Numbered from the stretch's first letter, positions 8,258-58,112 are shown. The stretch is DNA of 64,000 nt from Planctomycetaceae bacterium (GCA_046074645.1 JBJTOP010000227.1:40590-104589); one strand, 5' to 3'. Translations and numbers: made by a program. Notes: a model not told the origin generated them from the sequence alone.

Positions 8258-11200
8258 TTACCGCTGGAGGTCGGGTTTGACGGAGTAGAGGCTGCCGTCG
8301 AGTCCTGGGATAATGATCTGCTCACCCAGCTTCAGAAAACCTGCCTGCAGTTGCTGGGCGAGGTTGAGTGATTTGTCAGACGGTGAGCCATCGGGATTCA
8401 GTTTGAAGATACGACCATCGGAGCGGGCGACGAGGAACCCGTCGGGCACGGGGAAGGGGTTGCCGACAAGTGAGTACCCATCGAGGGGAATTGTGCCGGC
8501 GGGTGCCAGCCCATTTTCGGTGCGGAAGATGGCGGCACGTTCGCCGCCGATTTCGGCGAGGACGATATTTCCGGCGGCTTTGGGGGGAGCGGAGGCGACG
8601 CCGCCGAGGTCCTGTTGAGCGAGGAGTTCGAGGGTGGCGGTTTGCAGGACCAGCAGTTTTCCGGTGGTACTGGCGGCGTACAGGAAGTTCCCGGCGACAG
8701 TTGGAGAGAGTTCCACGGGTTGTGGGAGTCGAGTGACACCGACTTCGGCGAGTTGTGGTTTTGGAGTTGGGCGATATTCGACGCGGACGAGATCATTTGC
8801 GGCGGAGAGCGCGAGGACCTGTGTGTCGTTGAGTGCGACGAGGGCCTTCCAGGGCTGCTGTTGAGTCTGGTTCTGAGATGCGCGGTATTCTTCGGCTGTT
8901 TTTCCTTCTGCCATGGCGGTCAGGTGGAGTCGTCCGGAGGAGGCGAAGACGGCGCCTGCTGCGATGGCAACCGGGGGGACTTCGGGGGCATCTGGGAGTG
9001 TCCAGCGTCGTTCGAGTTGCCCGGTGGGTGTGAAGGTCCAGAGGGAGGGTTCGGGAGCGCCGGTCCAGGCGGCGGGCCTGCCGTCAGCGAGTACGAGCCC
9101 CTGAATGGGTGAGGCAAGTTTGTCGGGGAGTCGGAAGCGGCTGACACTTTCGATGACGAACGTGCCTTTGGCGATATCGGGGGCTGGCAGGCGATAGATT
9201 TCCCCATAGTCGGCGAGAGCGAGGACGGAGTTTCCGCCGGCTGAGGGTGCGAGGGCAATGATGCGAGTGCCGATAACGGTGCGCCAGATGCCCAGCATTT
9301 GTTCGCGGTCGGTTCGAGTGAAGAAGGTGGAGTCAGACTGGGCGGAGCGAGTGGTGAGGAAGGCGGACTCGTCGAGCACCTGAATGGGTTGGGAATGAAT
9401 GCCTTCTGCGGCGACAGCGGAGTCGAGTTCGACGGAGTTGGTGCGTGTGCGGAAGCGGCGGAGATCGCGACCTGCCAGCCAGAGTTGTCCTCCGGGGCCT
9501 GCGAGGAGGAACATTTGAGTCTGGAGGCCTTCTTCGAGTTGGTTGGCACCGATGCTGGCAAGCGGAGGCTGACCACGTTCGTCTCCAACGCGGAAGGCAG
9601 AAATTCGTTGCGGGGTGGACGGGACGAACAATTCGTAACCACGGAGGAGCGGGGGATCAAGGATCTGTCCATCGACTTCGTTTGAAGCGACGATGGAGAG
9701 ACGGCCATCGGATTCCGTTTGGAGGGTTTGAATGCGTCCTTTGGCTGAGGAAGCGTTATCGCAGAGGAGGAGGTAGCGGCCGGCAGCGAGCATGGGAACG
9801 CGAACGCTGTCCGGTCGATGGGGAATGTGGGAGACGGTTTCGCAGGCAAAGGGGTTGAGAGAGAGTGTGTAGACCATGGCCTGATCGCCTGGGAGCACAA
9901 GTTTCTGGCCATCGCCGGTCATGGCCGGCGGGCCGATGACGGTTTGAGGGAAGGCGAGTTTGGCGAGTGCGCGACCGTTGACAGCGGCGATCTGCCAGAG
10001 TTCCTGATTGTCGGTGGGTACGAAGACATTTCCGGCGATCAGGATGGGTTTGGCGGAGGGGCGGCTTTCGAGGGATTGGCGCCAGAGTGGCTGTCCGGTG
10101 GCTTGTGAGAGGAGCAGGAGTTCTTCGGAGAGAGTGCTGTAGACGAGAACTCCTTTTTCGGAGCCATCAACTTCGATGGGTTCGAAGGGTGCTTCTGTGC
10201 CGAGAACGGTTCTCCAGCGGGGGTCACCGGTATCTGCATCGACGGCCCAGCAGGAGTCGATGCCGATGGTGAAGATGAAGCGTCCCTGGGATGTGAGATC
10301 GGTGCGGCCCTGGGTTCTGAGTGCGAGCGTGGCGGCGGGGAGCGGGGAATTGGCGGGGTCGATGGGCGGGGCATCGCGGCCGAGATCAGTGCGGACGACG
10401 AGTTCTTTTTCGCGGTTGAGGATATCCGCGAGCATTTTAGTGACGTCTTTGTCGGTACTGAGCGAGGGGAAGCGATCGATGAGTGCCTGTCGTGTTTCGA
10501 GAGCGGGGACGGTTTCGCCGGCGGCGAGTTGGCTGGTGATTTTTTCGATGGTGGCTTTGAAGGATTGTTTGCGGGCGATGGCGCCTTCGGCGATTCGCTG
10601 GCGATCGACGAGGAATTCTTCGCGGGACTGGGGGATGCCGGTTTCGCCGGAGAAGCGTCGGAGAAGTTCAACAGCTTCGCGGCTGACGCGGAGGGCGTCC
10701 TCGGAGGCCGCCTGTTCGGCGACGATGGCACCGGCGTAGGCGAGTCTGTCGGAGTAGCGTCGGAGTGTATCGGTGAGTTCGTTGTAGCCTGGGAGATCGC
10801 CGCATTCGCTCATCAGATTCCGCAGTTCGGTCATACCGCGGATCACATCCGGAGTCGTGGTTTGAATGTATTTTTCGACGAGTGTGCGGTGGAGACCGAT
10901 ACGGGCTGCGGGAGTGGATTCGGTTTTGATGTAGACTTTGAGGAACTGAGTGAAGCGGGCTTCGGCGTCGAGATATTTCTGTTGTTCGAGGAAGGTTTGG
11001 GCTTCCTTGAGCATTCGGGATTCCGCATTCCGCTGATTGATGAACCAGAAGATAGCGGCGAGCACGAGGCAGACGATTGTGGTGCCGGAGAGGAAGAGGA
11101 CGACAGGGGATCGGGTGATGGACTGTTGTCCGGGGCGCTGCGGTCCGCCGGTGAGTCGATCGGACAGCAGTGCCATGCGACCGCGTTTGAGCTGCTGGCG

Positions 11201-11275
11201 GGCTTTCTGCTGGACGGCCTCCAGAGCTGCGTCGCTGGACGAGTCTTCCTGGCTGGGTTTAGAGGGGGTTACCAT
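8258..11275 (-). CDS. Membrane-anchored protein with a single N-terminal TM helix and a large beta-propeller-like (PQQ/BamB-like repeat) periplasmic region
   Basis: 1005 aa. TM segment VVLFLSGTTIVCLVLAAIFWFI. It is followed by a TPR-like helical stretch, then repeated motifs of hydrophobic strands followed by G/D turns (e.g. VFVPTDNQELW, LVLPGDQAMVY, LFVPSTPQRISAFRVGD), consistent with PQQ-type beta-propeller blades. Its start overlaps the kinase gene stop (11269-11275). Confidence 0.55.
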   Translation of the reverse strand: MVTPSKPSQEDSSSDAALEAVQQKARQQLKRGRMALLSDRLTGGPQRPGQQSITRSPVVLFLSGTTIVCLVLAAIFWFINQRNAESRMLKEAQTFLEQQKYLDAEARFTQFLKVYIKTESTPAARIGLHRTLVEKYIQTTTPDVIRGMTELRNLMSECGDLPGYNELTDTLRRYSDRLAYAGAIVAEQAASEDALRVSREAVELLRRFSGETGIPQSREEFLVDRQRIAEGAIARKQSFKATIEKITSQLAAGETVPALETRQALIDRFPSLSTDKDVTKMLADILNREKELVVRTDLGRDAPPIDPANSPLPAATLALRTQGRTDLTSQGRFIFTIGIDSCWAVDADTGDPRWRTVLGTEAPFEPIEVDGSEKGVLVYSTLSEELLLLSQATGQPLWRQSLESRPSAKPILIAGNVFVPTDNQELWQIAAVNGRALAKLAFPQTVIGPPAMTGDGQKLVLPGDQAMVYTLSLNPFACETVSHIPHRPDSVRVPMLAAGRYLLLCDNASSAKGRIQTLQTESDGRLSIVASNEVDGQILDPPLLRGYELFVPSTPQRISAFRVGDERGQPPLASIGANQLEEGLQTQMFLLAGPGGQLWLAGRDLRRFRTRTNSVELDSAVAAEGIHSQPIQVLDESAFLTTRSAQSDSTFFTRTDREQMLGIWRTVIGTRIIALAPSAGGNSVLALADYGEIYRLPAPDIAKGTFVIESVSRFRLPDKLASPIQGLVLADGRPAAWTGAPEPSLWTFTPTGQLERRWTLPDAPEVPPVAIAAGAVFASSGRLHLTAMAEGKTAEEYRASQNQTQQQPWKALVALNDTQVLALSAANDLVRVEYRPTPKPQLAEVGVTRLPQPVELSPTVAGNFLYAASTTGKLLVLQTATLELLAQQDLGGVASAPPKAAGNIVLAEIGGERAAIFRTENGLAPAGTIPLDGYSLVGNPFPVPDGFLVARSDGRIFKLNPDGSPSDKSLNLAQQLQAGFLKLGEQIIIPGLDGSLYSVKPDLQR

Positions 11276-12864
11276 TCGATGACCTTATTGCGGACGCGCG
11301 TGAAACCGGCCTGAGTGGCGGCATCAATCACGATGACTCGGGCTTCATGGTTGGAATCGGGATGGAGTTCCAGCTGGATGTCGGTGACGTCCGGGCTGGC
11401 GCTTTTTTCAGCTTTGAGGAGTTCGAGCAGTTCTCGGTAATTGGTGGCGCGTTTGGAGTCCTGCTCTTCGACGATCATGGTGTTGTCGGCGTCAACCTGA
11501 ACCTTCACGGCAGACTGTGACTCGTCCTGAACAACGACAGCAACGGAGACACCTTCGGTTTGTTTGGCTGGTGGGACGTCGAAGGCTTTCTGCATACTGA
11601 ATGAAGCGGTGACCATGAAGAAGATGAGCAGCTGGAAGGTCACATCGACGGCGGGTGTGAGGTCGATGGCGGCATTTTCCTGGGGGCGAGGGCGGCGTGG
11701 GGGTGGGTCGTCATCATCATCATTGTCGGCAGGGGCGACGGCGGCGGTCTGGAGCTGGAAGGGGGCGCGGGCGGAGCGGCGAGTTTCGGCGAGGTTAGCG
11801 GCTGCCATGGCTGCTGCCGAAGCGGGTTCGACGGAGTCTTCACCGAGGTCACGTTCGCTGGCGTCTGAGGCTTTGCCGGGCTTTTTGCGTTCCTGTTCAG
11901 ATTTGCGTTCGAGTTCTTCGAGACGGGGGAGACGAACGAGATCAAGAGAACGGCCCTGTTTGTGGGCAGCACTGAGGATGCGGATGTCTTCGAGGACTTC
12001 TTCGGCGGACTGATATCGCAGGGAGCGACGCTTGGCCATCATGCGGTGCACAAGCCGACAGACGATCTTCGGGAGTTCGGGATTTTTGTCTTCGAGTCTT
12101 GGGGGTGGATTATCGACGTGCTGAATGGCAATCTGGGCAGGTGTGGTGCCGCGAAAGGGAGTTTCTCCGCAGAGCAGCTGGTAGCAGGTGATGCCGAAGC
12201 TGTAGATATCGGAGCGAGGATCAAGTTCGCTCCCGTTTACCTGCTCGGGACTCATATATAGAGGTGTGCCCATGGTGACACCTCTCAGCCGGTCAGCGGA
12301 CTCACCCAGCTGGGCGAGCCCGAAGTCGGCGACTTTGATTTCACCCTTTTTATTGACGAGCAGATTTTCGGGTTTGATGTCCCGGTGCACGATTCCGGCC
12401 TGGCCGGAGGCTTTCAGAGCAGCCGCCACCTGTTTCATGACATGGAAGGCGGAGGTGAGATCGAGTTTGCCGCGTTCGCGGAGCAGGGTTGCCAGGTCCT
12501 GTCCCTGCACGAATTCCTGAGCGATGTAGTGATACTCGCCTTCCTGTCCGATTGTGTAGACCTGAACGATGTTGGGGTGATTCAGTCCCGCCGCCATCAT
12601 GGCTTCCTGGCGGAAACGTTTCAGCATGTCTTCACCGGAGAGGGCCATGAGTGAGGGTTTCATGACCTTGACGGCAACATATCGCTGCAGCGACGTCTGC
12701 TCGGCCAGAAACACTTCGGCCATACCGCCGCTTCCAAGCCTGCGAAGCAGGTGAAATTCGCCGAGCCGTTTGTCAGTCAGATCGCTCATGGAAGGGGCGT
12801 CAGGGGCTAGGGGCCAGGGTTTATTTTTCAGTGGTTCAGTGGTTGGTGTTGATGCGTGGATCAC
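11269..12864 (-). CDS. Ser/Thr protein kinase fused to a C-terminal ExbD/TolR (biopolymer transport) domain
   Basis: N-terminal Hanks-type kinase: GSGGMAEV (G-loop), VAVK (Lys), HRDIKPENLL (catalytic loop), DFGLA, and SPEQ (APE-like). It is followed by a Pro/Asp-rich linker DNDDDDDPPPRRPRP. The C-terminus AIDLTPAVDVTFQLLIFFMVTASF... is near-identical to the TM and start of the standalone ExbD at 12909..13361 (ITPMIDVTFQLLIFFMVTST). Confidence 0.8.
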   Translation of the reverse strand: MIHASTPTTEPLKNKPWPLAPDAPSMSDLTDKRLGEFHLLRRLGSGGMAEVFLAEQTSLQRYVAVKVMKPSLMALSGEDMLKRFRQEAMMAAGLNHPNIVQVYTIGQEGEYHYIAQEFVQGQDLATLLRERGKLDLTSAFHVMKQVAAALKASGQAGIVHRDIKPENLLVNKKGEIKVADFGLAQLGESADRLRGVTMGTPLYMSPEQVNGSELDPRSDIYSFGITCYQLLCGETPFRGTTPAQIAIQHVDNPPPRLEDKNPELPKIVCRLVHRMMAKRRSLRYQSAEEVLEDIRILSAAHKQGRSLDLVRLPRLEELERKSEQERKKPGKASDASERDLGEDSVEPASAAAMAAANLAETRRSARAPFQLQTAAVAPADNDDDDDPPPRRPRPQENAAIDLTPAVDVTFQLLIFFMVTASFSMQKAFDVPPAKQTEGVSVAVVVQDESQSAVKVQVDADNTMIVEEQDSKRATNYRELLELLKAEKSASPDVTDIQLELHPDSNHEARVIVIDAATQAGFTRVRNKVIEW

Positions 12865-50991: not shown

Positions 50992-52938
50992 ATGAACGCT
51001 CTGCTTAACTGGTTTGATGACCGTACCGGCGTCCGCAAACTTCTGCATGAAGCCCTCTACGAATCTGTTCCTGGCGGTGCTCGCTGGCGCTACGTCTGGG
51101 GCAGCACCCTTGTGTTCACATTCGTCGTTCAGGTGATCACCGGCTTCATGCTCTGGTCCGCCTACAGCCCCAGCACTCGCACGGCGTGGGAAAGCGTCTT
51201 CTACATCCAGTACGAAATGACTCTGGGCAGCGTCATTCGTGGCCTGCACCATTACTCCGCCCAGGCCATGGTGGTGCTCATGGCAATTCACCTCATGCAG
51301 GTCGTGATCGACGGCGCCTACAAAGCGCCGCGCGAAATGAATTTCTGGCTGGGAATCGTGCTGATGATGATCGTTCTCGGATTGTCTCTCACCGGCTACC
51401 TGCTTCCCTGGGACCAGAAAGGCTACTACGCAACTCAGGTAACCACCAACATCATGAGTGCCACTCCGGTAGTTGGGGCCGAAGTTCAGACACTGGCCCA
51501 GGGCGGCCGTGACTACGGCCATCTGACACTCACCCGATTCTTTGCCATGCACGCCGGTATCCTTCCCGCAATGCTGGTGGGGTTCCTTGCGCTTCACATC
51601 TATGTCTTTCGCCGACACGGGCTCACGGTACACGATCCCAAACATGCGCCCGATGCTCAGTTCTGGCCGGATCAGGTGCTGAAGGATGCCGTAGCCTGTC
51701 TGGGAGTGCTCTCTGTGGTGCTCATGCTGGCAGTGCTGCGCCCCGCTGAGCTCAGCGCCCCTGCCGACCCTGCGGTGAAATTCGACGCCGCCCGGCCCGA
51801 ATGGTACTTCCTCTTCCTCTTCCGGTTCCTCCGATTCCACGCCGTCGAAGCTCTGGGACTCACCTTCGGAGCCATCATTGTGCCAGGAATCATCATGGGA
51901 ATCATCGCGGTCATGCCGTTGACCGAGCGAGTTCTTGGGCGGGCCGGACACTTCCTCAACAAAGCCTTCATGTGGTCACTCGCCGTCGGCGTCGTGGTGC
52001 TCACCGTGATGGCCTTCTACGAAGACGCCAACGATCCAGGTCACCAGGCTGCTCTTGCAGAAGCTCATCGCGATGCAGGGCGAGCGATTGAGCTGGCGAA
52101 GAGCCCGGATCGGATTCCCGTGGACGGCGCTGTGGCTTTGCTGCGCCGCGATCCATTCACTCAGGGACCCCGCCTGTTCGCTCAGCACTGCGCCAGCTGC
52201 CACCGCTGGAATGGCCACGACGGCCGCGGAACTCTCGTCACTGACGCACTCAAACCCGGCGAATCCGGTGCCCCTCCCGTCACGCCCCCCACGGCAGCAG
52301 ACCTTGGCAACTTCGCAAGTCGTGACTGGATGAAGGCGATCCTCGTCGATTATTCAAACCACTTCCGCTGGCTGAAAAACGCCAGCTGGTACTCCGTCGC
52401 CAAAGAACAGCAGAGCAAAGGTGAATCCGTCGAGTTTCTCGATCCCGACGCATCCGAAATGGCCGACTGGACATCCGGCAACGCTGAGTCGCTCAAATCG
52501 CCCGAAAACGCGGACAATGTGACCGCGCTGGTTGAGTTTCTGTTTGCTGAAGCTGCACGCCCCGGGGCAGAATTAGATGCGGCACTTGTGGCCAAAGGAA
52601 AAGCCCTTGCCACCGAAGGCAACTGGGCAGGCGCACTCAATGGGACGTCCTGCAGTTCCTGTCACGACACGATCGGCCAGCCCTTTCCAGCGGAAGTCGA
52701 CGAGTCCAGCGGCAACGGATATCCAACCTTGGCAGCATACGGTTCAGGGGCCTGGCTGAAGGACTTTATCCGTCATCCGGATGCCCTGAGGCACTATGGT
52801 GCGAAGAACCGCATGCCGGCGTACTCCGCTAAGCAGCTTACCGACACCGATCTGGAGCTGCTTGTGCGCTGGATGACCGGAGACTATCCGAAGTCCACCG
52901 TAGCGGACTATCCTTCGATGCTGGAGCGAATTCCCTGA
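50992..52938 (+). CDS. Cytochrome b (b6-like) fused to a C-terminal dihaem cytochrome c domain
   Basis: N-terminal cytochrome b core with haem-ligand His in helices (RGLHHYSAQAMVVLMAIHLMQ..., FFAMHAGILP...ALHIYVF) and the PEW-like LPWDQ motif. The C-terminal soluble part has two CxxCH motifs (CASCH, CSSCH). Confidence 0.85.
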   Translation: MNALLNWFDDRTGVRKLLHEALYESVPGGARWRYVWGSTLVFTFVVQVITGFMLWSAYSPSTRTAWESVFYIQYEMTLGSVIRGLHHYSAQAMVVLMAIHLMQVVIDGAYKAPREMNFWLGIVLMMIVLGLSLTGYLLPWDQKGYYATQVTTNIMSATPVVGAEVQTLAQGGRDYGHLTLTRFFAMHAGILPAMLVGFLALHIYVFRRHGLTVHDPKHAPDAQFWPDQVLKDAVACLGVLSVVLMLAVLRPAELSAPADPAVKFDAARPEWYFLFLFRFLRFHAVEALGLTFGAIIVPGIIMGIIAVMPLTERVLGRAGHFLNKAFMWSLAVGVVVLTVMAFYEDANDPGHQAALAEAHRDAGRAIELAKSPDRIPVDGAVALLRRDPFTQGPRLFAQHCASCHRWNGHDGRGTLVTDALKPGESGAPPVTPPTAADLGNFASRDWMKAILVDYSNHFRWLKNASWYSVAKEQQSKGESVEFLDPDASEMADWTSGNAESLKSPENADNVTALVEFLFAEAARPGAELDAALVAKGKALATEGNWAGALNGTSCSSCHDTIGQPFPAEVDESSGNGYPTLAAYGSGAWLKDFIRHPDALRHYGAKNRMPAYSAKQLTDTDLELLVRWMTGDYPKSTVADYPSMLERIP

Positions 52939-52959
52939 CCGAAACAGGGAACTCGAATT

Positions 52960-53589
52960 TCACGGAAGCGACGTCAGCCGCTCTACGGACAGCACTTCAT
53001 GGAAGAACCACGGTTTGCCTGCCATCTTTTTCCAGATAGCGGTCTGCGATGGAAAACCGGTTCCGTCGACTTCGCGCCACTCACTGAAGCGGTAGATGTC
53101 GTCACGCCAGTCGATGCGGATAAGGCGAAAAGTCTGAGAGTCAAAGTGCAGGTCCATTGCGGGAGTCACGGTACCTGAAGCACGAACAGCCTGCGTGGTT
53201 GCCCCGGATTCCTGAACGCCGGGGATTTTTTGCAGCTGTGTGGCGGGGTCGTTAAGCAATCCCAGAGTCCAGGCCCAGACCACAAATTTTGCCGGTTCTG
53301 CTCCACGTTCTTTGCCTTCCACCGTCCAGATTTTCGGGGGCTGCAGGATGGAGTTGCGTGACTGAGATTTTGTTGAGGGTGCTTTTTCGGCGCCAGCATT
53401 GTAACGCTCGACCATTTTGAAGGTCGTGAGCAGCTTTTCGCGGCCACCGGCAGCCGCATTGACAGACTGTACCAGTTGTTTTGTGTCATCGCTGCCGGGT
53501 GTTCCGTTGCTGGTTTCCTGGGCAGCAGCAAACGGCGTCAGAACACAGATGCCAATGGCAATAAAGAAACAGTGATGGACTGCAATCAT
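52960..53589 (-). CDS. Secreted hypothetical protein
   Basis: Signal peptide MIAVHHCFFIAIGICVLTPFAAAQ. No recognised domain. Its start overlaps the stop of the HEPN gene by 4 bp. Confidence 0.5.
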   Translation of the reverse strand: MIAVHHCFFIAIGICVLTPFAAAQETSNGTPGSDDTKQLVQSVNAAAGGREKLLTTFKMVERYNAGAEKAPSTKSQSRNSILQPPKIWTVEGKERGAEPAKFVVWAWTLGLLNDPATQLQKIPGVQESGATTQAVRASGTVTPAMDLHFDSQTFRLIRIDWRDDIYRFSEWREVDGTGFPSQTAIWKKMAGKPWFFHEVLSVERLTSLP

Positions 53590-54353
53590 GCGGGGCCGCC
53601 AGCTCGAAAGGGGGGTGGGACAACGACTTCGTCGGCAGGTCGGACGGCGCGGGCGACAGAGTCGCCAGCGAGTTCCGGAGCTTTAAGCTGGATCTGAACA
53701 GAAGGTTCGCAGTAGGGGCAACTGGCGGTGTAAATGATACAGCCGCAGTTTGAGCATTCGCGGGGGCCGTGCTGATGCAGGGATTCCCGGGTGACCTGCC
53801 ACCATGCAATTCGCATGAGTGCGAGGAACACCAGAAAGGCCATCAACCATGACCATGGAGCGTGGCCAAATGCGATGATTGCGGTATCGAGTGCGATACC
53901 GCTGGCTCCGCAGAGCAGAAAAGGCCAGAGTTTTCCGAAGAAATCAGGTGCTTCGGGAGGACCGATTTCGTCGCGCCAGAGTCGTCCGAGTGATTCGCGA
54001 CGGAGTCGAGCGGCACGCTGAGCGGCGGGACTGCCAACGGCCACCAGGAGTCTTTCGATGCCGTCGGTGATGCGGTAAACATCGTTTTCGTGGATGTGCT
54101 GCTGATGAGCCCAGCGGTTGCGGTATTCGCGAAGTTCACTCACGAGACTGCGTTCGACGAAGCTGAGTTGGAAGCGGAAGACGTCGTTCCAGTGATCCCA
54201 CATGAAAACGAGGAGCGACTGGGCGTCCCACGACTGAATATCGGTGCGTGTCTGTTGATTTTCGGCCAGCAGTTCATCCGTAACGCAGCGAGCCACATAC
54301 GGCCTGAGGCCGATGGCAAGAACATCGAGTGCGTTGGAGACGGGATCGATCAC
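53586..54353 (-). CDS. Swt1-like HEPN domain protein with C-terminal TM hairpin and zinc-ribbon
   Basis: WDHWNDVFRFQLSFVERSLVSELREYRNRWAHQQHIHENDVYRITDGIERLL: the Rx4H HEPN motif (RNRWAH) in the conserved Swt1-HEPN context. It is followed by two TM helices and CSNCGCIIYTASCPYCE. Confidence 0.6.
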   Translation of the reverse strand: MIDPVSNALDVLAIGLRPYVARCVTDELLAENQQTRTDIQSWDAQSLLVFMWDHWNDVFRFQLSFVERSLVSELREYRNRWAHQQHIHENDVYRITDGIERLLVAVGSPAAQRAARLRRESLGRLWRDEIGPPEAPDFFGKLWPFLLCGASGIALDTAIIAFGHAPWSWLMAFLVFLALMRIAWWQVTRESLHQHGPRECSNCGCIIYTASCPYCEPSVQIQLKAPELAGDSVARAVRPADEVVVPPPFRAGGPA

Positions 54354-54703
54354 GGGATTGACTCATCGAGACTGAAGAACGGGCGGACCGAAAATTTCGG
54401 AGCCTTTGCGGAGTTGTGGTCATGTCGAGGTGCTGACAGTCAACAGATGTTGCAGGAGTAAGCGCAAGGTGAGAGGCAACTCGTCCCAATTAGACGTTTC
54501 AAATCTTCAAATGTCTGAGTCGGAAAACAGGATTCCGATCGATGTTATAGGAATCTGCGGAAGACTTTGTCGATTGTACGGGTAGGGTAATCTGTAGTGG
54601 AGCTGATTGGGGTTCAGGATGCCCGACGTTGTTGATTCGCCATCCCGTCAACATCTCGCTAAGATCCCTGCAACCCTGCAGTTCGGTCAGTCAGAGAAAC
54701 TGG

Positions 54704-55354
54704 AACATGGCAGAGCAACTGGCGTCCACCGATTATTCTTCCTTTGAAGACGATCAGCGAATGATCCGTCTGCAGGAGGGGGATGCGCGGGCGTTTGCAG
54801 AGATTGTGGCGGTCTGGCAGGCCCCGCTGCTGCGGTTTTTTTATCGCAGTACCCGGGATGCAGCGATATCTGAGGACCTGGTCCAGGAGACTCTGTTAAG
54901 GCTTTACCGCACCGCATGGGACTACCTTCCCCAGGGGCTGTTTCGCGGTTTCCTGTTCCGTATTGCCCGCAATCTGCTGATCGATCATTGTCGCAGGCAG
55001 GTTTCAGACCTGCTGGTGCGTTCCGTCCGCCACCGTCCGGGGTTTGGTGATGACGGCGACAGCAGCTGGCTATCAGAGCTGCCAGGATCTGCGCGGACAG
55101 CAGAATCGACCGCGGAGGACCATGAGGTGGACTTGCTTGTCCGCAGACTGCTGCAGGATTTCCCGGAGGAGCAGCGGGTGACATTCACTCTATATCACTA
55201 CGATTCTCTGACACTGCCGGAAATCGCGGACGCGACCAATTCCGGCCTTTCCACCACCAAGAGCCGATTACGTCTGGCCCGTGAAAAGCTGCGAGAGCAA
55301 TTGACAGCACGGGGCTTCGGTGAGGGATACCGCGAACCATTCGGCTCTATCTAG
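54704..55354 (+). CDS. ECF-subfamily RNA polymerase sigma-70 factor
   Basis: Region 2 (EDLVQETLLRLYR, FRIARNLLIDHCRR) and region 4 (LTLPEIADATNSGLSTTKSRLRLAREKL). Start set at MAEQLAST (54704). Confidence 0.8.
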   Translation, partial: NMAEQLASTDYSSFEDDQRMIRLQEGDARAFAEIVAVWQAPLLRFFYRSTRDAAISEDLVQETLLRLYRTAWDYLPQGLFRGFLFRIARNLLIDHCRRQVSDLLVRSVRHRPGFGDDGDSSWLSELPGSARTAESTAEDHEVDLLVRRLLQDFPEEQRVTFTLYHYDSLTLPEIADATNSGLSTTKSRLRLAREKLREQLTARGFGEGYREPFGSI

Positions 55355-55396
55355 TTGACCCACTCTTTATTTCCTTACACGCACGCGAAGCCCGTC

Positions 55397-55939
55397 ATGC
55401 CACACTTCAGCCGACTCACAGACATCATCACCTGCAGCCTCACTGACATGCTCAGGTCCGCTGAGAACCCTCGTCAGCTGCTGCAGGAAGTTCTTGCGGA
55501 AATGCAGGAGGGTCTGGCAGCCTGCCAAAGAAATGTGCGTTCCAGCACTGCCAACCACCAGCGACTTGAACGGGAAATTCAGGACTGTCTGTCGCAGATT
55601 GAAGACTGGCGCAACCGAGCTCGCCAGGCTCTGCAGAACGGCAGCGAATCAAGTGCTCGCCAGGCCCTGCAGCGTAAAGCCGAAATTGAAGCGCTCGTGG
55701 AAGGGCTCCGCCCGGAGCTCGAGGCGGCCGCATCCACCTGCCAGAATCTCATTCGCATCCGCAATGCACTCGATGCCCGATTTGCAGAGGCGCTGCGTTG
55801 CATGGAGGAACTCACCGGTACATCACTGCACCTGACCGCTGACAATTCGGTTGAAGCCGCACTGGCTCCAGCAATCACTCGCCGTAACGATGCCCTCGAA
55901 GCCGAACTCGAAGCACTCCGACGTGAACTTGGAAACTAA
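55397..55939 (+). CDS. pspA: PspA/IM30 family protein (phage-shock protein A / Vipp1-like)
   Basis: MPHFSRLTDIITCSLTDMLRSAENPRQLLQEVLAEMQEGL aligns with the PspA N-terminus ([28 protein letters not shown]...). Coiled-coil composition throughout. Confidence 0.7.
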   Translation: MPHFSRLTDIITCSLTDMLRSAENPRQLLQEVLAEMQEGLAACQRNVRSSTANHQRLEREIQDCLSQIEDWRNRARQALQNGSESSARQALQRKAEIEALVEGLRPELEAAASTCQNLIRIRNALDARFAEALRCMEELTGTSLHLTADNSVEAALAPAITRRNDALEAELEALRRELGN

Positions 55940-55991
55940 ACACACACCGAACTTTTTCCCACCTTTTCCGGCCCTGCAGGGGTTCCACGAC

Positions 55992-58112
55992 ATGCCGCAA
56001 TTTTCCGGAACACTGTCTTTACTGCTCTGCCTGTGGCTGCCTGCATCAGCCGCTCCATGCCCTCGTGCAGCTGAACCTCCAGCGATTGATTCGGTCGCGC
56101 TGACCCAAAACGTCGCTGGCCTCAATCAGCTTATTCAGCAGGGACGAATCTCCGGTTTTGTCACAGCAGTGCAGCACGGCAATTCGGAACCACTGGGATC
56201 CACAGGAGGAGACGCGGACATTGCCGGCAAACGTCCAATGCAGCAGGATACCATCTTCCGCATCGCCTCGCTCACCAAAACCCTTACAGCCACCGCGCTG
56301 CTGCTGCTTGTCGCCGACGGCCGCTGCGGCATCGACGATCCAGTTTCGCAGCATCTGCCCGCGTTCGCCCATCCCAGACTGGCAGACGGCAGCGAAGTTC
56401 GCGTACCGACAATCCGCGAGATTCTGACACATACCGCCGGCCTGCCAAACAATTCCGGACTGGATGGAGATCGCACTCTGGCACAGGAAGTGGATGCACT
56501 CGCAGGCCGGCCTTTTCAATTCTCGCCAGGCTCGAGGTGGCAGTACAGCAGCGGTCTGACGGTCGCCGGAAGACTGGTGGAAGTGCTCTCGGGTAAACCA
56601 TTCGAAGACTACCTCCGCGAGTCCATCACTGAACCACTCGGCATGCATGACACCACTTTCACGCTCAATGCTGCTCAGGCGGCCCGACTGGCAGTGACCT
56701 ACCAGCCCGGAGATGCTCGAGGAAGTCTTAAACCCGTTACGATTCCTGATCCCACAGTTCACCGTCTGCCCAATCCATCGGGCGGGCTGTATTCAACTGC
56801 GTCAGACATGCTGAAGTTCTACAACGCGGTGCTGAATGCTTTTCACGGTCGAGCAAATCGGCTGAAGCTGTCACAGCAAACGGCCCGGCAAATGCTCACA
56901 CCACACACCGGCAGTCTTGAAACCGGCTTCACTCCAGGCAACGCGTGGGGGCTGGGCTGGTGCCTGGTTCAGAAACCCCAGGGAGTGACTCGACTGCTCT
57001 CGCCGGACACCTTCGGCCACGGCGGCGCCTGGGGAACTCAGGCATGGATAGACCCTCACCGCAATCTGATACTGCTGCTGATGATTCAGCGGTCCGGGTT
57101 TGGCAACAGCGATGCATCCGAAGTTCGTGATGCGTTCAACGAGGCGGTGCTGAAGTCGTTCCGTGGCAACAGCCATCCCACCGCTCGAATCACCCCCTGG
57201 AACGGCCACGAGCAGGCGGTCGAGCTGACTAAAGGCAGCACGCGTGTCGTTCTGGGGCCGGAGACGGGTGGCCGAGTGCTCGAGTACACCATTGCGGGAC
57301 GCAACCTGCTCCATCTCGACGATCGTGAGTCTGCATGGAAGCCTGGCATGCCACCGCAGTCGTCTGCGGGACGGTTCGACTTTGGTCCAGAGCTGGTAGT
57401 CCCGCGTCATACGGCCATCTGGTCGGGACCCTGGACAGCAGAGATCACCGGTCCGCATTCGGCGCGACTGGTGAGCGTTCGTGATGCGGATTCCGGCGTG
57501 CAGCTGATTCGTGATTTTTCGCTGACAGAGGAAGCAGACCGCGAGTGGTCCGGGGCCGTCCTTGTCTGTCGGCAGGTCCTGATGAACACCGGCACTTCGG
57601 TCGTTGAGTACTGTCACTGGGGGCGATCGTTCCATCCGCAGCCGGGTATTTGTGTCATTCCGCTGGGGGATCGTCCGAGCCGTTTTCCTTCGAAGTATGT
57701 GATGTATGAAGAAGATGGCGGCATCAATCCGAAGGCGGTGGACCCACAGATCCGGGAACGCGACGGAGTGCTGGAAATTCTCGGCCCACCGCGACGTCCT
57801 AAGCTGGGCTTCGACAGCTATGCCGGATGGCTGGCCTTCGCAATGCCCGACAATCGGCTGTTTGTCAAGCGTTTTCCGGCGGATCCGGATCGGGTTTACA
57901 ACGAAGCTGCCGGTCTGACGATTTCAGTCTGGTATCCGCAGGGAAAGATGGTGGAGCTGGAGCCGATCGGCCCGCGGGAGCGACTGGTTCCGGGAGCAGT
58001 TGCGGAGTTCACGGAAACGTGGAGTGTGGCGGAGTTGCCATTCCCGGCGGCTGGCGAAAGCCTGGATCTGGCTCGTGTTCGCCAGCTGGTTGCTCCGGCA
58101 GGTGCGCGATGA
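55992..58112 (+). CDS. Secreted serine hydrolase of the beta-lactamase/PBP4-like family with large C-terminal extension
   Basis: Signal peptide MPQFSGTLSLLLCLWLPASAA. SxxK motif in FRIASLTKTLTATALL. YSS (Y-x-N-like) and HGG (K/H-T/S-G-like) motifs downstream. Confidence 0.7.
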   Translation: MPQFSGTLSLLLCLWLPASAAPCPRAAEPPAIDSVALTQNVAGLNQLIQQGRISGFVTAVQHGNSEPLGSTGGDADIAGKRPMQQDTIFRIASLTKTLTATALLLLVADGRCGIDDPVSQHLPAFAHPRLADGSEVRVPTIREILTHTAGLPNNSGLDGDRTLAQEVDALAGRPFQFSPGSRWQYSSGLTVAGRLVEVLSGKPFEDYLRESITEPLGMHDTTFTLNAAQAARLAVTYQPGDARGSLKPVTIPDPTVHRLPNPSGGLYSTASDMLKFYNAVLNAFHGRANRLKLSQQTARQMLTPHTGSLETGFTPGNAWGLGWCLVQKPQGVTRLLSPDTFGHGGAWGTQAWIDPHRNLILLLMIQRSGFGNSDASEVRDAFNEAVLKSFRGNSHPTARITPWNGHEQAVELTKGSTRVVLGPETGGRVLEYTIAGRNLLHLDDRESAWKPGMPPQSSAGRFDFGPELVVPRHTAIWSGPWTAEITGPHSARLVSVRDADSGVQLIRDFSLTEEADREWSGAVLVCRQVLMNTGTSVVEYCHWGRSFHPQPGICVIPLGDRPSRFPSKYVMYEEDGGINPKAVDPQIRERDGVLEILGPPRRPKLGFDSYAGWLAFAMPDNRLFVKRFPADPDRVYNEAAGLTISVWYPQGKMVELEPIGPRERLVPGAVAEFTETWSVAELPFPAAGESLDLARVRQLVAPAGAR

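Follow-up and report, generated by a model that had tools for sequence, protein, structure and literature searches.

A 64,000-nucleotide stretch of Planctomycetaceae bacterium DNA (GCA_046074645.1 JBJTOP010000227.1:40590-104589), referred to here as the window, contains a gene for a Swt1-type HEPN protein with a transmembrane (TM) helical hairpin and a C-terminal zinc ribbon. An open reading frame (ORF) for a 209-residue protein lies immediately downstream, and genes for an extracytoplasmic function (ECF) sigma factor and a PspA/IM30 protein are divergently oriented upstream (Table 1). The domain structure, conservation, family range and genomic neighbourhood of the HEPN protein were analysed, and the combined results indicate that it is probably a membrane-tethered RNase.

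A Swt1-type HEPN domain with a conserved catalytic motif

A Pfam search identified PF18731 (HEPN_Swt1) as the sole Pfam domain in the protein. The match covers residues 9-107 and profile positions 3-115 of 115, with E = 8.6e-25 and a score of 87.7 bits compared to the curated gathering cut-off of 27.5 bits. The start codon position is common to relatives in the alignments, where it appears as either GTG or ATG. The AlphaFold model of the protein has a mean predicted local distance difference test score (pLDDT) of 86.3, and comparison with the helical bundles of solved HEPN domains shows the same all-alpha fold. The initial annotation of this DNA had named a Swt1-type HEPN domain with an RNRWAH motif and had proposed a Pfam search as its check; the PF18731 match and the motif read from the sequence at R78-H83 verify that assignment.

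Conservation was computed from alignments of 25 and 99 family members. N79, R80, W81, A82, H83 and Q84 are invariant in the 99 sequences, and R78 is conserved in at least 90% of them. Five further arginines (R60, R68, R75, R94 and R101) are also invariant, which fits an RNA-binding surface. An RNRWAH-type motif occurs in 40 of 44 cluster representatives and has the exact RNRWAH sequence in 32. A Foldseek search of the AlphaFold model against the PDB gave no match below E = 1, and a PDB sequence search with the family profile returned only insignificant zinc-ribbon look-alikes (Spt4, Nop10 and eIF2-gamma; E 0.26-0.7). An NCBIfam scan of the HEPN protein and the downstream protein yielded no match.

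Membrane hairpin and zinc ribbon

TM segments were called from a 19-residue Kyte-Doolittle mean (>1.6) together with the AlphaFold helices. Two hydrophobic segments separated by a 4-residue loop follow the HEPN domain (Table 1). The model places helices at residues 138-162 and 167-195, with block pLDDT values of 92-98 across residues 141-190. The hydrophobic pair is retained in 92 of the 99 relatives, the loop never exceeds 4 residues, and the family median Kyte-Doolittle value for TM helix 1 is 1.65. Lysine and arginine are found on both outer flanks of the hairpin and never inside the loop in the 99 relatives. By the positive-inside rule, this charge distribution indicates an N-in/C-in topology with both globular domains in the cytoplasm. 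Two full-length metagenomic members, P0393 and P0396, retain the TM hairpin and the zinc ribbon despite the loss of catalytic residues.

The zinc ribbon has the spacing CxxC-x8-CPYC, and AlphaFold predicts short strands at residues 198-199 and 206-207. C200, C203, C212 and C215 are each at least 90% conserved in the 99 sequences, as are G196, P197, Y208 and Y214, and P213 is invariant. Conservation calculated by segment is highest in the HEPN core and the zinc ribbon, lower in the TM helices and essentially absent from the C-terminal tail. The tail (residues 217-255) has block pLDDT values of 52-63, a mean top-residue frequency of 0.16 and 35% gaps. Hydropathy, the AlphaFold model, the retention of the hairpin across relatives and the four conserved cysteines all support the two TM helices and the CxxC...CxxC ribbon recorded in the initial annotation.

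Table 1. Features of the HEPN locus in window coordinates
Feature	Coordinates	Strand	Description
HEPN-TM hairpin-zinc ribbon gene	53586..54353	-	255 aa; GTG start; TGA stop at 53586-53588
Swt1-type HEPN domain	53964..54353	-	Residues 1-130, all alpha-helical
Rx4H catalytic motif	54105..54122	-	R78-N79-R80-W81-A82-H83, read from sequence
TM helix 1	53868..53930	-	Residues ~142-162; hydropathy and AlphaFold
TM helix 2	53796..53855	-	Residues ~167-186; hydropathy and AlphaFold
Zinc ribbon	53706..53768	-	Residues 196-216; G-P-x-x-C200-x2-C203-x4-Y208-x3-C212-P-Y-C215
C-terminal tail	53589..53705	-	Residues 217-255; non-conserved, low-confidence
Signal-peptide protein (context)	52960..53589	-	209 aa; LolA/LolB-superfamily fold; 4 bp shared with HEPN stop
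Divergent intergenic region (context)	54354..54706	.	353 bp, between HEPN gene and ECF sigma gene
ECF sigma gene (context)	54707-55354	+	Pfam Sigma70_r2, Sigma70_r4_2, Sigma70_ECF
PspA/IM30 gene (context)	55355-55939	+	PspA_IM30, E 1e-20

Family range and inheritance

A search of 5.8 billion proteins recovered 376 homologues of the HEPN protein. Query coverage in the best 120 of these ranges from 55 to 100% and is mostly 84-100%. All organism names given by the source among the matches listed are planctomycetes, mostly Planctomycetaceae. A profile was searched exhaustively against 1.84 billion cluster representatives, of which approximately 35-45 match over most or all of the length. Beyond these, only the HEPN part matches (profile positions 3-135), in other architectures that include HEPN-DUF499 AAA+ fusions. 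When one genome per GTDB species was scanned, 218 species genomes proved to contain relatives. Each of the best 80 loci belongs to a separate assembly, and nearly all are labelled Planctomycetaceae or their genera, the few others being evidently mislabelled metagenome-assembled genomes (MAGs). Named relatives are found in Gimesia maris, G. algae, Thalassoglobus neptunius and Planctomicrobium species, and carry the NCBI name "Swt1 family HEPN domain-containing protein". These distributions indicate that this is most likely a single-gene family restricted to Planctomycetaceae.

The rate of divergence was compared at 15 loci where the HEPN gene is syntenic with the ECF and PspA genes. Identity of the HEPN protein to the window protein tracks the corresponding identities of ECF (r = 0.90) and PspA (r = 0.95), and the mean identities to the window are 68% for HEPN, 64% for ECF and 65% for PspA. 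The HEPN protein is no more divergent than these neighbours, which is the pattern of co-divergence and not that of a fast-evolving or transferred defence gene. Inheritance of the gene is vertical and apparently single-copy, in housekeeping neighbourhoods that vary.

Genomic context and tests for defence association

Neighbour clustering covered 82 loci with called neighbours, and the recurrent neighbours were annotated. No gene accompanies the HEPN gene at all 82 loci. At most loci the HEPN gene is separated by >100 bp from each of its neighbours and therefore behaves as a stand-alone unit. The recurrent neighbours include miaA downstream in 19 species, a gene for a receiver-domain-like protein divergently upstream in 15 species and an RNase HII gene upstream in 6 species; other loci have unrelated neighbours. 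The miaA gene, encoding tRNA isopentenyltransferase, is on the same strand 50-420 bp downstream at loci L016-L019, L022, L026, L027, L032 and L040-L048. This adjacency may be inherited synteny, or may point to a tRNA-related substrate.

Pfam was used to annotate the contexts on the Planctomicrobium sp. SH664 chromosome, a MAG contig of 1.2 Mb and an 810-kb contig with the Gimesia maris protein, along with another four loci that lie in MAGs and on a JGI metagenome contig. The annotated contexts are housekeeping and contain citrate synthase, ribosomal protein S20, PcrA/UvrD, flagellin, the cytochrome bc complex and DUF1501. The 12 kb on each side of the gene in the window encode an SDR protein, methyltransferases, an HtrA-like protease, Rieske/cytochrome b-c proteins, a beta-lactamase-fold protein, an M19 dipeptidase, EPSP synthase and PrmC. 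The locus has a uniform GC content, and the window contains no tRNA. The beta-lactamase fold of the 753-residue protein at 55851-58112 (+) is confined to residues 93-422, and the C-terminal ~330 residues have no Pfam match. The start listed for its ORF, which falls within the last part of the PspA ORF, probably lies too far upstream.

The initial annotation had framed the HEPN gene as a component of a defence or toxin-antitoxin system and had suggested a PADLOC search of the locus. The 5027 models of PADLOC-DB 2.0 gave no match at E <= 1 to either the HEPN protein or the downstream protein, and the genes flanking them in the window gave only generic methyltransferase/trypsin domain-level matches. 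A tblastn search of 72,556 plasmids found no full-length copy, only HEPN-domain matches that span at most 49% of the query. IMG/VR likewise contained no full-length copy and returned two HEPN-only and two ribbon-only matches. An MNT or other antitoxin-like partner was neither found in the window nor present as a gene shared at all 82 loci, in agreement with the missing MNT partner recorded previously, and the upstream intergenic region has no conserved small antitoxin-like ORF. When that region was translated, several frames resembled close relatives to the same degree and the similarity jumped from one frame to another, which is the behaviour of conserved DNA and not of coding sequence. The defence framing does not hold up against these data: the orthologues reside among housekeeping genes and show no link to mobile elements or defence systems, an outcome that the initial annotation had named as refuting it.

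The downstream LolA-like gene

The stop codon of the HEPN gene overlaps the ATG of the 209-residue ORF (52960..53589, minus strand) in the sequence ATGA at 53586..53589. The encoded protein opens with a hydrophobic signal-like segment ending in AAA/QE and has a LolA/LolB-like fold. Its family has 201 detected members, including Verrucomicrobiota proteins (Brevifollis, Prosthecobacter) whose genes have unrelated neighbours and no HEPN gene beside them. The 209-residue gene adjoins the HEPN gene only at L001, L002, L009 and L011, all from relatives that are at least 75% identical. L009 and L011 have a gap of 109-115 bp instead of the overlap, and L010, which is 78% identical, does not have the 209-residue gene. 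It is the unconserved tail at the C terminus of the HEPN protein that creates the overlap in the window. Co-transcription of the two genes in this genome is plausible, and the comparison of loci shows that the LolA-like protein is not a conserved partner and does not support a functional two-gene module. The 4-bp overlap on which the initial annotation based such a module is real; the conserved module is not, because the two genes are adjacent only in the close relatives.

At L001 (GCA_053538655.1, labelled UNVERIFIED_CONTAM, 93% identical), the LolA-like gene at 8765-9393 is broken into two ORFs, one of 140 and one of 69 residues, and the cytochrome b-c gene at 9651-12104 is fragmented. These split genes are probably frameshifts or assembly errors in the MAG and not biology.

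The ECF sigma-PspA operon and the shared intergenic region

Pfam matches to three sigma factor models (Table 1) confirm the divergent ECF sigma gene noted in the initial annotation. Its stop codon occupies 55352-55354, and the PspA/IM30 ORF starts directly at 55355. The ECF-PspA pair is found divergently upstream of the HEPN gene in 15 species whose HEPN proteins are 58-93% identical to the window protein. The HEPN-ECF spacer measures ~340-380 bp at most of these loci, and the outer flanks vary around the retained ECF-PspA-HEPN arrangement, with miaA or cytochrome bc on one side and GNAT or beta-lactamase on the other. Pfam annotation detects no recognisable anti-sigma gene in the ECF operon, and the published ECF classification mentions neither PspA nor HEPN neighbours. 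The ECF sigma-PspA operon could itself be a membrane-stress module, perhaps with PspA acting as the sigma regulator.

An alignment of 16 intergenic regions revealed blocks that are conserved among close relatives, down to ~73% protein identity. A repeat scan located the palindrome GATTCCGAT-N7-ATAGGAATC at 54531-54555. The TTCC/GGAA arms are retained in the alignment and the spacer varies, so that the element looks like a putative operator. A second conserved block, AACGTCTAAT, is on the HEPN strand at 54489-54498. This block was considered as part of an ECF-type promoter (GGAAC/CGTC-like) before the HEPN gene; no convincing -35 element pairs with it at 16-17 nt, and a promoter is not claimed. 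A consensus scan of the intergenic region found no sigma-70-like promoter, and no Rfam family was detected there. An int-alpA match in an Rfam scan of 52500-55500 was sub-threshold and cut by the edge (E 0.059), and was taken as a chance match. The sole terminator-like site from the scan lies within the HEPN coding sequence.

Comparison with known systems

A group of bacterial proteins with the order HEPN-two TM helices-zinc ribbon has already been described, with gi 325108440 of Planctomyces brasiliensis as an example (Anantharaman, Makarova, Burroughs, Koonin, Aravind 2013, Biol Direct 8:15, PMC3710099). That study lists three groups of membrane-associated bacterial HEPN proteins, and its section 15 predicts RNA processing on the membrane side or stimulus-dependent RNA degradation at the membrane. 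The architecture was called unusual in the initial annotation, a description that its publication in 2013 with a planctomycete example does not bear out. The window protein shares the domain order, the intact motif and the phylum of the 2013 group, and there is no architectural difference between them. It differs from the published example in coming from another, uncultured lineage and in having a 39-residue non-conserved tail. The identical architecture and the presence of members in cultured Gimesia, Thalassoglobus and Planctomicrobium point to kinship with gi 325108440, and the window protein is an orthologue of the family described by its architecture.

The domain for which PF18731 is named, the C-terminal HEPN of yeast/eukaryotic Swt1 (PDB 4pqz), is only 8% identical to the window protein in a structural alignment. 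Swt1 is soluble, resides in the nucleus and has a PIN nuclease domain, whereas the planctomycete protein lacks the PIN domain and is membrane-anchored. The Swt1 HEPN is thought to be inactive and its motif is partly conserved; the planctomycete protein, in contrast, keeps RNxxxH.

The nearest HEPN domains outside the family are N-terminal on DUF499-type AAA+ proteins of ~1000-1100 residues. One of these, WP_014677588.1 (a DUF499 AAA+ fusion of the Ava_2192 type), is ~40% identical over residues 5-124 and shares both the N-terminal position of the HEPN domain and an RNRWAH-type motif with the window protein. However, it is a soluble ATPase fusion of 1084 residues that is plasmid-borne and has neither a TM hairpin nor a zinc ribbon. 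On the Thermus thermophilus HB8 plasmid pVV8 (L096, 5977-9231), the HEPN-DUF499 gene is near a HicAB pair and genes for DUF1156, helicase-related and Fic proteins, surroundings that resemble a restriction system and are of a defence type.

HEPN-MNT pairs of types II/VII and the lactococcal AbiD/AbiF/Abi2 proteins share the HEPN superfamily and the Rx4-6H motif with the planctomycete protein, but the latter has no adjacent antitoxin, no Abi_2 or PADLOC match and no mobile or island context. A membrane-held HEPN RNase that cuts RNA on the cytoplasmic side during stress is the principle that the protein would share, by analogy, with the eukaryotic KEN-domain RNases Ire1 and RNase L and with C6orf70, for which this working principle was proposed in PMC3710099. 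Ire1 and RNase L have a kinase or pseudokinase domain, and Ire1 also has a lumenal sensor; the planctomycete protein has neither of these, its loop is only 4 residues long and its HEPN domain belongs to another HEPN family. The ribbon also differs from that of the ZAS (zf-HC2) anti-sigma factors, which have an N-terminal HxxxCxxC and are co-transcribed with their sigma factor, whereas the planctomycete ribbon is a C-terminal CxxC-x8-CxxC encoded by a divergent gene. No Pfam anti-sigma match was found in the HEPN protein.

Discussion

The results are best explained by a cytoplasm-facing endoribonuclease of the Swt1/Abi2 HEPN type that is tethered to the inner membrane, carries a four-cysteine ribbon and forms a single-gene family restricted to Planctomycetaceae, and this description is probably correct. 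The helical hairpin would tether the HEPN domain to the cytoplasmic face of the membrane, with the zinc ribbon on the same side. By analogy with other HEPN RNases, a HEPN dimer may cleave RNA close to the membrane. Poor conservation of the TM residues and the lack of an outer domain suggest that the hairpin is mainly an anchor. The zinc ribbon may aid the binding of RNA or a partner, or may control dimer formation. A membrane or envelope stress response would be the most plausible setting in the window's clade, where the gene shares a ~350-bp control region with the ECF sigma-PspA operon. Most family members do not have that neighbour, so the link between the ECF sigma-PspA operon and the HEPN gene is treated as a hypothesis of low probability. 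A bacterial counterpart of Ire1, in which the hairpin would dimerise upon membrane perturbation and the HEPN domain would cleave specific membrane-proximal RNAs as part of the ECF sigma-PspA response, is a speculative analogy and is very unlikely to be correct. If it were true, a domesticated defence-type RNase would be a core stress regulator.

Several points weigh against the proposal of a membrane-tethered RNase. That the protein cleaves RNA, dimerises and inserts into the membrane is predicted, and the literature yields no later characterisation, biochemical or genetic, of any family member. The catalytic R or H is missing from two divergent members (P0393, CNRWAR; P0396, RTRWAQ), which hints that some lineages may use the scaffold without RNase activity. 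ECF-PspA adjacency occurs at only 15 of the 82 loci and may be inherited synteny only. The closest HEPN-only relatives are in defence-type systems, and a defence origin or a retained defence role is possible.

A defence role would be fulfilled by an Abi2/AbiD/AbiF-like effector, encoded by one gene and acting in abortive infection or against phage, that is held inactive at the membrane, released or activated on infection and fixed in Planctomycetaceae. In its favour, Abi2/Swt1-group HEPN domains characteristically belong to defence systems (PMC3710099), and the nearest HEPN-only relatives form fusions with DUF499 ATPases inside restriction-like plasmid operons. The planctomycete protein also retains its catalytic motif, and gating by the membrane would make an antitoxin unnecessary. 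This explanation is nevertheless unlikely. The protein matched none of the PADLOC models, even at the permissive E-value used, and has no full-length copy on plasmids or viral contigs. It is confined to one bacterial family, no assembly occurs twice among its best 80 loci, its divergence is in step with that of its neighbours and no faster, and the genes around it have housekeeping functions and include none of a defence or mobile type. The divergent operon suggests another function, that of a regulatory partner of ECF sigma-PspA: a membrane-bound binder of the sigma factor or its mRNA that acts as an unconventional anti-sigma or feedback element, with HEPN mainly a binding module. The divergent arrangement, with a spacer of ~340-380 bp at most loci, persists in 15 species whose HEPN identity falls as low as 58%, and the outer flanks differ among them; the operon has no recognisable anti-sigma gene, and the shared intergenic region has conserved blocks and a palindrome. 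However, 67 of the 82 loci do not have the ECF neighbour, and the catalytic residues are strongly conserved, which would be needless in a pure binding role. The protein also has no zf-HC2 signature or Pfam anti-sigma match, and a 4-residue loop leaves it with no extracytoplasmic sensing domain. A regulatory partnership of this kind is highly improbable.

The comparative genomics largely refutes a two-gene module with the overlapping secreted protein, for example a toxin with an envelope partner, and there is almost no likelihood that it is correct. In both this genome and the 93%-identical relative, the ATGA overlap points to translational coupling, and no terminator-like site lies between the genes. 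Against this, the adjacency is limited to four close relatives, with the gap at L009 and L011 and the absence at L010, and the overlap depends on the non-conserved HEPN tail. The downstream family has its own range that includes Verrucomicrobiota with unrelated neighbours, and the LolA/LolB-like fold is a periplasmic scaffold for binding lipids or lipoproteins with no known tie to RNases. The HEPN gene is not half of a toxin-antitoxin pair, nor does it form a two-gene module with the LolA-like protein.

HEPN RNases have been studied mostly as toxins and immune effectors. The family analysed here illustrates that a HEPN domain alone is not evidence of a defence or toxin-antitoxin locus. Its presence in culturable species such as Gimesia maris makes an experimental test feasible. 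The protein carries a catalytically intact HEPN domain and is vertically inherited, apparently single-copy, membrane-tied and family-wide, which suggests that the Planctomycetaceae have recruited the nuclease to a cellular function.

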